A DNA stretch of 64,000 nucleotides from assembly GCF_000026545.1 (NCBI RefSeq), contig NC_011601.1; one strand, given 5' to 3'. Shown one piece after another: positions 29,482-30,113 of this stretch (positions within the stretch are counted from its first letter, which is position 1; each line of letters opens with the position of its first letter). Origin of the DNA: Escherichia coli O127:H6 str. E2348/69 (GTDB lineage: Bacteria > Pseudomonadota > Gammaproteobacteria > Enterobacterales > Enterobacteriaceae). Under the pieces are notes generated by a model. It was not told where the DNA came from. It did no database searches and was given only the letters and a program-made list of their open reading frames with translations. The position numbers were made by a program, and so were the translations under genes.

Positions 29482-29841
29482 TTATAAATGATTCAAACGC
29501 TCATTTAGCGTTTCAATAATATAAGTATTTACAGAGACTTGTTGCTGCGCAGCCGCATTATTAAGGCGTTCACTCAGCGATTCTGGATAGCGTAATGTAA
29601 AGGTCTTAATCTTTTCTGTACGCGCATACGGCTCAATACCCGCAGCTTTACAATCCTCAAGATACTCTCGCAGGGAAAGCTCCCCTTCTTTTTGCAGCCC
29701 CTGAATGCTGTCAGAGACAAAATCACAATAACCTGACAAGCCCAGGAATTTGCCACGAAATGCATTCAGTTCTGGCACGTAAGTGATAACAGCAGGTTGC
29801 CCGGCAATCTCCATAGAGTTTGGCGTCTTCAGTTTGATCAT
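29482..29841 (-). CDS. HicB-family type II antitoxin (N-terminal HicB fold, C-terminal ribbon-helix-helix DNA-binding tail)
   Basis: 119 aa; N-terminal AVITYVPELNAFRGKFLGLSGYCDF...LREYLEDCKAAGIEP resembles HicB; C-terminal KTFTLRYPESLSERLNNAAAQQQVSVNTYIIETLNERL looks like an RHH; ATG overlaps upstream toxin stop (ATGA). Confidence 0.62.
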   Translation of the reverse strand: MIKLKTPNSMEIAGQPAVITYVPELNAFRGKFLGLSGYCDFVSDSIQGLQKEGELSLREYLEDCKAAGIEPYARTEKIKTFTLRYPESLSERLNNAAAQQQVSVNTYIIETLNERLNHL

Positions 29842-30113
29842 GGTTTTACCCCTATACTTAGTAACCAGTCACGCACGCTTTCTACAGCGCCTTTATCGGT
29901 ATCTGGCGACGGATGAGGCCGATGGAAACACGCAACGCTCATATTTAGTATGAACTTACAACGCGAACCTCTTCCTTCCTTAATTTCTCCGCCTAATGCT
30001 TTAACCAGTGACTCTATATCAGACCACTTAATCCCTTGAGGAACAGGAGATTTAAATATTTGATCCAATGTATTTTTTTGTTTCTTCCGCAAAGCCTGTA
30101 CCTGGGTTCTCAT
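29838..30113 (-). CDS. HicA-like type II toxin (putative mRNA interferase, dsRBD-like fold) with Arg at the usual catalytic His position
   Basis: 91 aa; ...SDIESLVKALGGEIKEGRGSRCKF...FHRPHPSPDTDKGAVESVRDWLLSIGV fits the HicA pattern (G-x-GSH-x-F ... PHP ... V ... L ... G) except GSR replaces GSH; sits upstream of and translationally coupled to the HicB-like gene. Confidence 0.58.
   Translation of the reverse strand: MRTQVQALRKKQKNTLDQIFKSPVPQGIKWSDIESLVKALGGEIKEGRGSRCKFILNMSVACFHRPHPSPDTDKGAVESVRDWLLSIGVKP

Follow-up and report, generated by a model that had tools for sequence, protein, structure and literature searches.

The hicAB locus

The window analysed here is a stretch of 64,000 nucleotides from Escherichia coli O127:H6 str. 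E2348/69 (NC_011601.1), and carries a hicAB gene pair flanked by nikR and yhhJ (Table 1). The first gene, hicA, encodes a 91-amino-acid protein whose sequence in the window allele is MRTQVQALRKKQKNTLDQIFKSPVPQGIKWSDIESLVKALGGEIKEGRGSRCKFILNMSVACFHRPHPSPDTDKGAVESVRDWLLSIGVKP. It lies upstream of hicB, and the hicA stop and hicB start codons share four nucleotides (ATGA, 29838-29841). The open reading frame quoted in a first-pass annotation of this DNA is exactly the minus-strand translation of 30113..29838, and the N-terminal stretch quoted there is residues 1-30. RefSeq names the two products "HicA family toxin" (WP_001260301.1) and "HicB family antitoxin" (WP_000593555.1), and no PADLOC or NCBIfam model matched either protein. 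We conclude that the pair is a genuine type II toxin-antitoxin module of the hicAB kind, located on the chromosome; its toxin gene comes first and its antitoxin carries a C-terminal ribbon-helix-helix (RHH), as in Class 4 of Gerdes' scheme.

Table 1. Positions of the hicAB genes and associated features in the window
Feature	Coordinates	Strand	Basis
hicA, 91-aa HicA-fold toxin, GSR subfamily	29838..30113	(-)	ORF as quoted in the first-pass annotation
hicB, 119-aa antitoxin, HicB-fold N-domain and C-terminal ribbon-helix-helix	29482..29841	(-)	
N-terminal extension of HicA, residues 1-30: helices predicted at 2-6 and 10-19, plus a linker containing Pro	30024..30113	(-)	
Codons G49-S50-R51 (ggt tcg cgt), with R51 in place of the canonical catalytic His	29961..29969	(-)	sequence and hhalign
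Codons F63-H64-R65-P66-H67-P68, clade-specific motif where beta3 ends and the beta3-alpha2 loop begins; candidates for a relocated catalytic site	29910..29927	(-)	
Promoter-like site (TTGACT-16 nt-TACTAT) with four overlapping TGAnnTCA(TA) repeats	30111..30174	(-)	promoter scan, repeat search
AT-rich hairpin (15-bp stem) with a T-rich tail after it, terminator-like	29395..29427	(-)	terminator scan, consensus match only

The 119-amino-acid product of hicB matches the Pfam HicB family at residues 60-112 (E = 3.5e-15), shows weak matches to Arc/CopG ribbon-helix-helix proteins, and matches the phage protein family phrog_9151, "HicB-like antitoxin". Sequence searches of the PDB with HicB were uninformative. 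An AlphaFold2 (AF2) model (pLDDT 86) consists of four N-terminal strands, a long helix and then two C-terminal helices, and a fold search established that the protein combines a partial RNase H-like (HicB-fold) N-domain with a C-terminal RHH. The repeats upstream of hicA occur in both direct and inverted orientation, and together form a 21-nucleotide imperfect inverted repeat. This layout is usual for RHH antitoxins, and the repeat region is probably the HicB operator.

The nikR/yhhJ junction (window 29362-30186) is a variable spot. In K-12, rhsB-yhhH-yrhC-yhhI occupies it in place of hicAB, and in O157:H7 hicB is adjoined by a class II aldolase gene, not by nikR. In the window, hicB and nikR converge, and the hairpin between their ends could terminate both transcripts.

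An arginine at the catalytic histidine position

Characterised HicA toxins have a single conserved histidine, located on beta2, and it is essential (PMC3969222, PMC6159526, PMC11594946). In Burkholderia pseudomallei HicA (BpsHicA), the H24A and G22C variants are both non-toxic (PMC3969222), and H36A HicA of Streptococcus pneumoniae is devoid of RNase activity (PMC6159526). The first-pass annotation had proposed, on the basis of an alignment made by hand, that the window HicA reads GSR instead of GSH at this site. The arginine at issue is R51 (codon 29961-29963), which lies within the segment EGRGSRCKF, residues 46-54.

Residues 30-80 of HicA match the Pfam family HicA_toxin (PF07927) at model positions 1-52 of 58 (E = 3.7e-9). 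A phmmer search of the PDB with the HicA protein found no significant match, and a search with the family profile yielded no more than a weak match to a HicA. Residue correspondence was therefore settled by profile-profile alignment, in which hhalign compared a profile of 32 diverse family members (A1) with one built from five HicAs of solved structure (A2), whose sequences were recovered by PDB searches. The result is one ungapped alignment of 51 columns (probability 91%, E = 1.1e-6), which places S31-R81 of the window HicA onto S4-Q54 of BpsHicA. G49, S50 and R51 correspond to G22, S23 and H24, respectively, H64 corresponds to T37, R65 to V38, and P66-H67-P68 to P39-H40-P41. An independent weak profile match, to PDB entry 9svk_A, aligns "GsR" to "GSH". 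The conserved glycine of the beta1-beta2 turn (BpsHicA G22) is present as G49, and is Gly in 266 of the 268 family members aligned. The canonical catalytic histidine at the start of beta2 is absent from the window HicA, and R51 is found there.

Because H64 and H67 lie nearby, we considered whether one of them actually occupies the canonical catalytic position and the hand alignment had been shifted. The ungapped pairing of R51 with H24, which also pairs G49 with the functionally required G22, rules this out, and a shift is contradicted as well by the distance from GS(H/R) to P-H-P, which is 15 residues in the window HicA and in canonical HicAs alike, by the Pfam coordinates, and by the location of R51 at the start of beta2 in the AF2 model. 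We regard such an error as vanishingly improbable. The hand alignment was thus correct: there is no histidine at the active-site position, and arginine is found there in 380 of 387 aligned members of the clade, counting together the two sets of sequences described below.

Fold and N-terminal extension

The identity of the window HicA to solved HicAs is only 8-18%. An AF2 model of HicA built with the A1 alignment (pLDDT 92.9, pTM 0.84) has helices at residues 2-6, 10-19, 30-39 and 74-86, and strands at 43-46, 51-56 and 59-64. In this model the alpha-beta-beta-beta-alpha, dsRBD-like core of HicA is present, preceded by two extra helices, and R51 is the first residue of beta2. The Pfam domain begins at residue 30 and leaves about 29 residues ahead of it, in agreement with the N-terminal extension of some 30 residues that the first-pass annotation had described. 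The helices of the extension are modelled with pLDDT 92-97, and T15, L16, F20, P23 and W30 show little or no variation across the family, as judged from the A1 alignment. In the PHROGs collection, phrog_8887, a full-length family annotated "toxin", covers residues 11-91 of HicA (E = 2e-26).

A widespread GSR subfamily

A profile search of 1.84 billion representatives of clusters formed at 50% identity detected 2466 clusters with E <= 1e-3, 997 with E <= 1e-10 and 23 with E <= 1e-30. We counted residues in two sets of sequences: 268 sequences aligned to the family HMM, and the 120 closest database relatives of one outlying member, P0196. Besides the glycine noted above, S50 is conserved in 263 and R51 in 261 of the 268 sequences of the first set, and downstream positions are similarly constrained (H64, 254/260; R65, 236/260; P66, 257/260; H67, 255/260). 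Conservation is higher still in the second set, with R51 in 119 of 120, H64 and R65 in all 120, H67 in 119, and H64-R65-P66 in every sequence. Exceptions at position 51 are mostly frameshifted fragments from E. coli.

Canonical HicAs have a different set of residues. Among 125 such proteins, H24 is present in 124, T37 in 122, V38 in 121 and H40 in 121, and G22, S23, P39 and P41 are also the residues of their columns. As read from these alignments, the signature of the clade is a reciprocal swap, from His to Arg on beta2 and from Thr-Val to His-Arg on beta3. The co-occurrence of GSR with H64 is essentially one evolutionary event, and not repeated covariation. By sequence, then, GSR HicAs are a large and coherent HicA subfamily rather than a one-off mutation, and the subfamily is defined by an N-terminal helical extension of ~22-29 residues together with G-S-R and F-H-R-P-H-P. 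A distinct HicA-fold subfamily was one of three explanations for the arginine put forward in the first-pass annotation, and these clade-wide features support it, in a clade for which the profile search gives 997 clusters at E <= 1e-10.

Members of the clade occur in Enterobacterales, rhizobia, Azospirillum, Burkholderiales, Nostoc, Deinococcus, Planctomycetes and Acidobacteriota. Copies are also found on plasmids of Piscirickettsia, Sinorhizobium and Deinococcus, and in temperate phages, including Burkholderia phage ST79 and Ralstonia phages; the plasmid and phage copies are annotated as HicA|HicB. In unrelated genomes, such as an Azospirillum-like MAG and Planctomicrobium (three loci, L006-L008), a GSR hicA is again followed by hicB with a four-nucleotide overlap. 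On the chromosome of Planctomicrobium sp. SH527, the 143-amino-acid HicB-like ORF that overlaps the GSR hicA by four nucleotides (L006 2752-3183) is absent from the gene table of the record. Some clade members are mislabelled "hexulose-6-phosphate synthase" or "uracil DNA glycosylase", and their HicB partner "DNA repair protein", which looks like an annotation error propagated through Enterobacterales records.

P0196 is the lone GSH member found. We looked for a GSH sister clade with the same N-terminal extension and did not find one: 119 of the 120 closest relatives of P0196 are GSR, and P0196 is an isolated variant among them. Four other members (P0238, P0246, P0211 and P0255) have Ala, Met or Ser at position 51 and keep H-R-P-H-P. 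These rare variants hint that the pair of histidines, rather than the arginine, may be the indispensable element.

Two larger proteins contain the GSR domain at or near their C-termini. One, of 2052 amino acids, is encoded on a JGI metagenome contig (Ga0373634_0001302; L010 4001-10159) and combines haemagglutinin repeats (Pfam Fil_haemagg_2, E = 1e-5) with a C-terminal GSR HicA domain (HicA_toxin, E = 2.5e-5), whose sequence includes …GNGSRMSV…HFHRPHSKDTDKG…. No hicB-like ORF follows this gene, and the next genes encode a small RHH-like protein and a toxin of the YafQ/ParE family. The protein may be a polymorphic toxin that uses the GSR HicA domain as its warhead. The other protein, P0184 (337 amino acids), carries its GSR HicA domain at residues 251-336, and NCBIfam has no match to the ~250 residues before it.

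Repeated loss of hicA in E. coli

Of 5426 complete E. coli genomes, 2073 (38%) carry the hicAB module, always on the chromosome and at the nikR/yhhJ junction, and these carriers include EPEC E2348/69 and O157:H7. We compared alleles at five loci, namely those of the window, O157:H7 and three further genomes (L003, L004 and L005). The window and O157:H7 alleles of hicA are intact, and the latter is two substitutions away from the former. A widespread hicA-null allele combines a stop at codon 2 with loss of one upstream repeat through a 14-bp deletion; the window positions concerned are 30111-30113 and 30147-30165. This allele has 809 matches overall and is matched exactly in 766 of the 5426 complete genomes, and the codon-2 stop knocks out hicA in ~37% of E. 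coli carriers.

Other lesions also fall within hicA. A 1-bp deletion in the G49-S50 codons is present in 7 complete genomes, and its 55-amino-acid product is encoded on 588 contigs; in another allele, two bases are missing from the poly-A run at codons 10-13; and protein clusters add forms frameshifted after residues 57-60, forms with insertions, and one that lacks residues 56-63 in frame and carries H64Q. HicB is full length at all five loci compared and identical in protein sequence at four of them, and short HicB forms are rare in its cluster. This repeated, hicA-specific loss with retention of hicB, observed in a partial sampling rather than a formal test, suggests that HicA is harmful when unopposed. 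The null allele found in 766 genomes may be a single ancestral mutation carried by successful lineages.

RefSeq annotates the codon-2-stop allele as a 76-amino-acid HicA that begins at a CTG codon, a doubtful start. Relative to the window, the nucleotide sequence of L003 is much more diverged in the 5' half of hicA (codons 1-50) than in the 3' half and hicB, which are near identical, and L005 shares part of the divergent 5' block of L003. The pattern resembles allelic recombination more than uniform decay.

These data bear on another explanation raised in the first-pass annotation, that the protein is an attenuated or inactive toxin. If the arginine had inactivated HicA, the gene pair would be a harmless remnant or a regulator centred on HicB, a scenario compatible with the lack of toxicity of canonical His-to-Ala mutants (PMC3969222) and with the ~37% of E. 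coli carriers that are hicA-null and keep hicB. However, R51, H64, R65, H67, D73 and G75 are near-invariant across Enterobacterales, Alphaproteobacteria, Cyanobacteria, Planctomycetes and Deinococcus, and on plasmids and in phages. Moreover, decay in many independent ways that leaves hicB largely intact is the pattern to be expected of a harmful toxin, and one CdiA/FhaB-like protein has the domain where its toxin would lie. Given the near-invariance of R51 across distant taxa, the constant pairing with hicB and the decay of hicA over hicB, inactivation is not supported for the family or for the intact window allele, and we consider a dead toxin very unlikely.

A possible rewired active site

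The explanation that we favour, with moderate confidence, is that GSR HicAs are active RNA-targeting toxins, probably endoribonucleases, with an active site rewired to use Arg51 together with His64/His67. In toxin RNases of the MazF type, an arginine is a key catalytic residue. Arg51 might similarly bind or polarise the scissile phosphate, and His64 and/or His67, which would sit beside R51 on the same face of the sheet, could provide acid/base chemistry. The N-terminal domain of HicB would cover the active face of HicA and so neutralise it, and the RHH of HicB would bind the promoter-overlapping TGAnnTCA repeats and repress transcription. In the S. pneumoniae system, Glu47 caps His36.

The predicted structure is consistent with such an arrangement. 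A two-residue Asn-Gly/Met turn (57-58) connects strands 51-56 and 59-64, so R51 and H64 are expected to be cross-strand partners on the same face. Butt et al. described BpsHicA H40, the equivalent of H67, as "close in space to His24", and reported that V36 and V38 face the core (PMC3969222); T37, the equivalent of H64, should therefore face outward like H24. The proximity of R51, H64 and H67 is thus suggested by the secondary-structure string, the register of the strands and a published remark. The first-pass annotation had also listed a different catalytic arrangement among its explanations. This suggestion is plausible and consistent with the finding that H64, R65 and H67, which would lie next to R51, are invariant exactly in this clade; the mechanism itself is what we infer.

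A change of the histidine abolishes activity in every HicA that has been studied (PMC11594946, PMC6159526, PMC3969222), which counts against an active GSR toxin. The canonical catalytic histidine is absent, and a non-nucleolytic toxin might have kept the RNA-binding fold and lost catalysis, inhibiting growth stoichiometrically by binding mRNA, rRNA or the ribosome. The HicA fold is indeed an RNA-binding fold (PMC3969222). Basic residues have been gained at positions 51 and 65, and R51, K/R53 and R65 would strengthen binding to the phosphate backbone; in addition, the pairing with HicB and the decay of hicA require toxicity, not cleavage. Yet a pure binding surface would have little need of invariant H64 and H67 right beside position 51, and other toxin RNases, MazF among them, do rely on arginine for catalysis. 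On balance, we judge binding without cleavage to be unlikely.

A further alternative is an active enzyme that has a different substrate or uses different chemistry. The active-site residues differ, the added conserved extension may reshape the substrate-binding face, and sequence identity to solved HicAs is low. However, nothing specific indicates another substrate, and the fold, partner and operon layout are canonical for hicAB; we assign this alternative a low probability. Returning to the rewired toxin that we prefer, a broader proposal is that GSR proteins constitute a second mechanistic class of HicA, in which either the catalytic histidine has moved to the adjacent beta3 and the beta3-alpha2 loop (H64/H67) and acts with a MazF-like Arg51, or catalysis has been dropped for stoichiometric binding of RNA or the ribosome. 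We offer this proposal tentatively, as one that falls a little short of an even chance.

Reviews and structural papers present HicA as having one conserved, essential histidine, and mutants, structures and ideas for inhibitors have been built on it. An active GSR branch would mean that catalysis by HicA is more plastic than has been assumed, and that automated "HicA family toxin" labels hide two mechanistic classes. If a second class does exist, the equation of HicA with one essential histidine fails for a clade that has loci in 38% of E. coli genomes. The invariant Arg/His/His set offers direct and cheap mutants for dissecting a mechanism of RNA cleavage that is poorly understood even in canonical HicA, and the natural E. 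coli lineages that are hicA-null and hicB-intact are at hand for studies of the module's role in vivo.

Comparison with known systems

We found no paper in the searchable literature that describes or tests a GSR-type HicA. The HicA-domain system validated with DefensePredictor is an unrelated protein of 472 amino acids, and a survey of Synechocystis toxin-antitoxin systems holds no functional HicA data. What is already known is that the locus is annotated and common; the arginine variant itself is uncharacterised.

The nearest known systems are canonical HicA mRNA interferases of solved structure: E. coli K-12 HicA (6HPB), B. pseudomallei HicA (4C26/6G26), Yersinia pestis HicA3 (4P78), S. pneumoniae HicA (5YRZ) and Thermus thermophilus TTHA1913 (1WHZ). 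They share with the window HicA the PF07927 domain, Gly-Ser at the beta1-beta2 turn, P-H-P after beta3, a gene order of hicA then hicB, and a HicB-fold antitoxin. Whereas canonical HicAs have an essential histidine (H23 in E. coli, H24 in B. pseudomallei, H28 in Y. pestis and H36 in S. pneumoniae), the window HicA has arginine; the canonical Thr-Val is H64-R65; and the helical extension of ~22-29 residues at the N-terminus is a feature of the window HicA.

[quoted passage not shown] A homologue from Klebsiella variicola that is ~80% identical to the window HicA (cf. P0008) appears in its Table S1 as Class 4, and the GSR members from Nostoc, Sinorhizobium, Rhizobium and Pannonibacter fall there into Class 3 or 4. 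The main text of that study does not contain the words "histidine", "catalytic" or "active site", and its classes rest on genetic context; the GSR clade has thus been catalogued and not recognised as distinct.

Among CdiA/FhaB-type toxins, the metagenomic 2052-amino-acid protein carries a GSR HicA domain as its C-terminus, which indicates that the domain can serve as a toxin module, and no hicB-like gene follows in its locus, whereas the window HicA is a free-standing cytoplasmic toxin of 91 amino acids that is encoded with HicB.

MazF and Kid are small, metal-independent toxin RNases. Their resemblance to GSR HicAs is an analogy of chemistry only, as MazF is a dimer of SH3-like barrels and the proteins are not homologous. 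Their catalytic arginine nevertheless indicates that a toxin RNase can be active with an arginine at the heart of its site.
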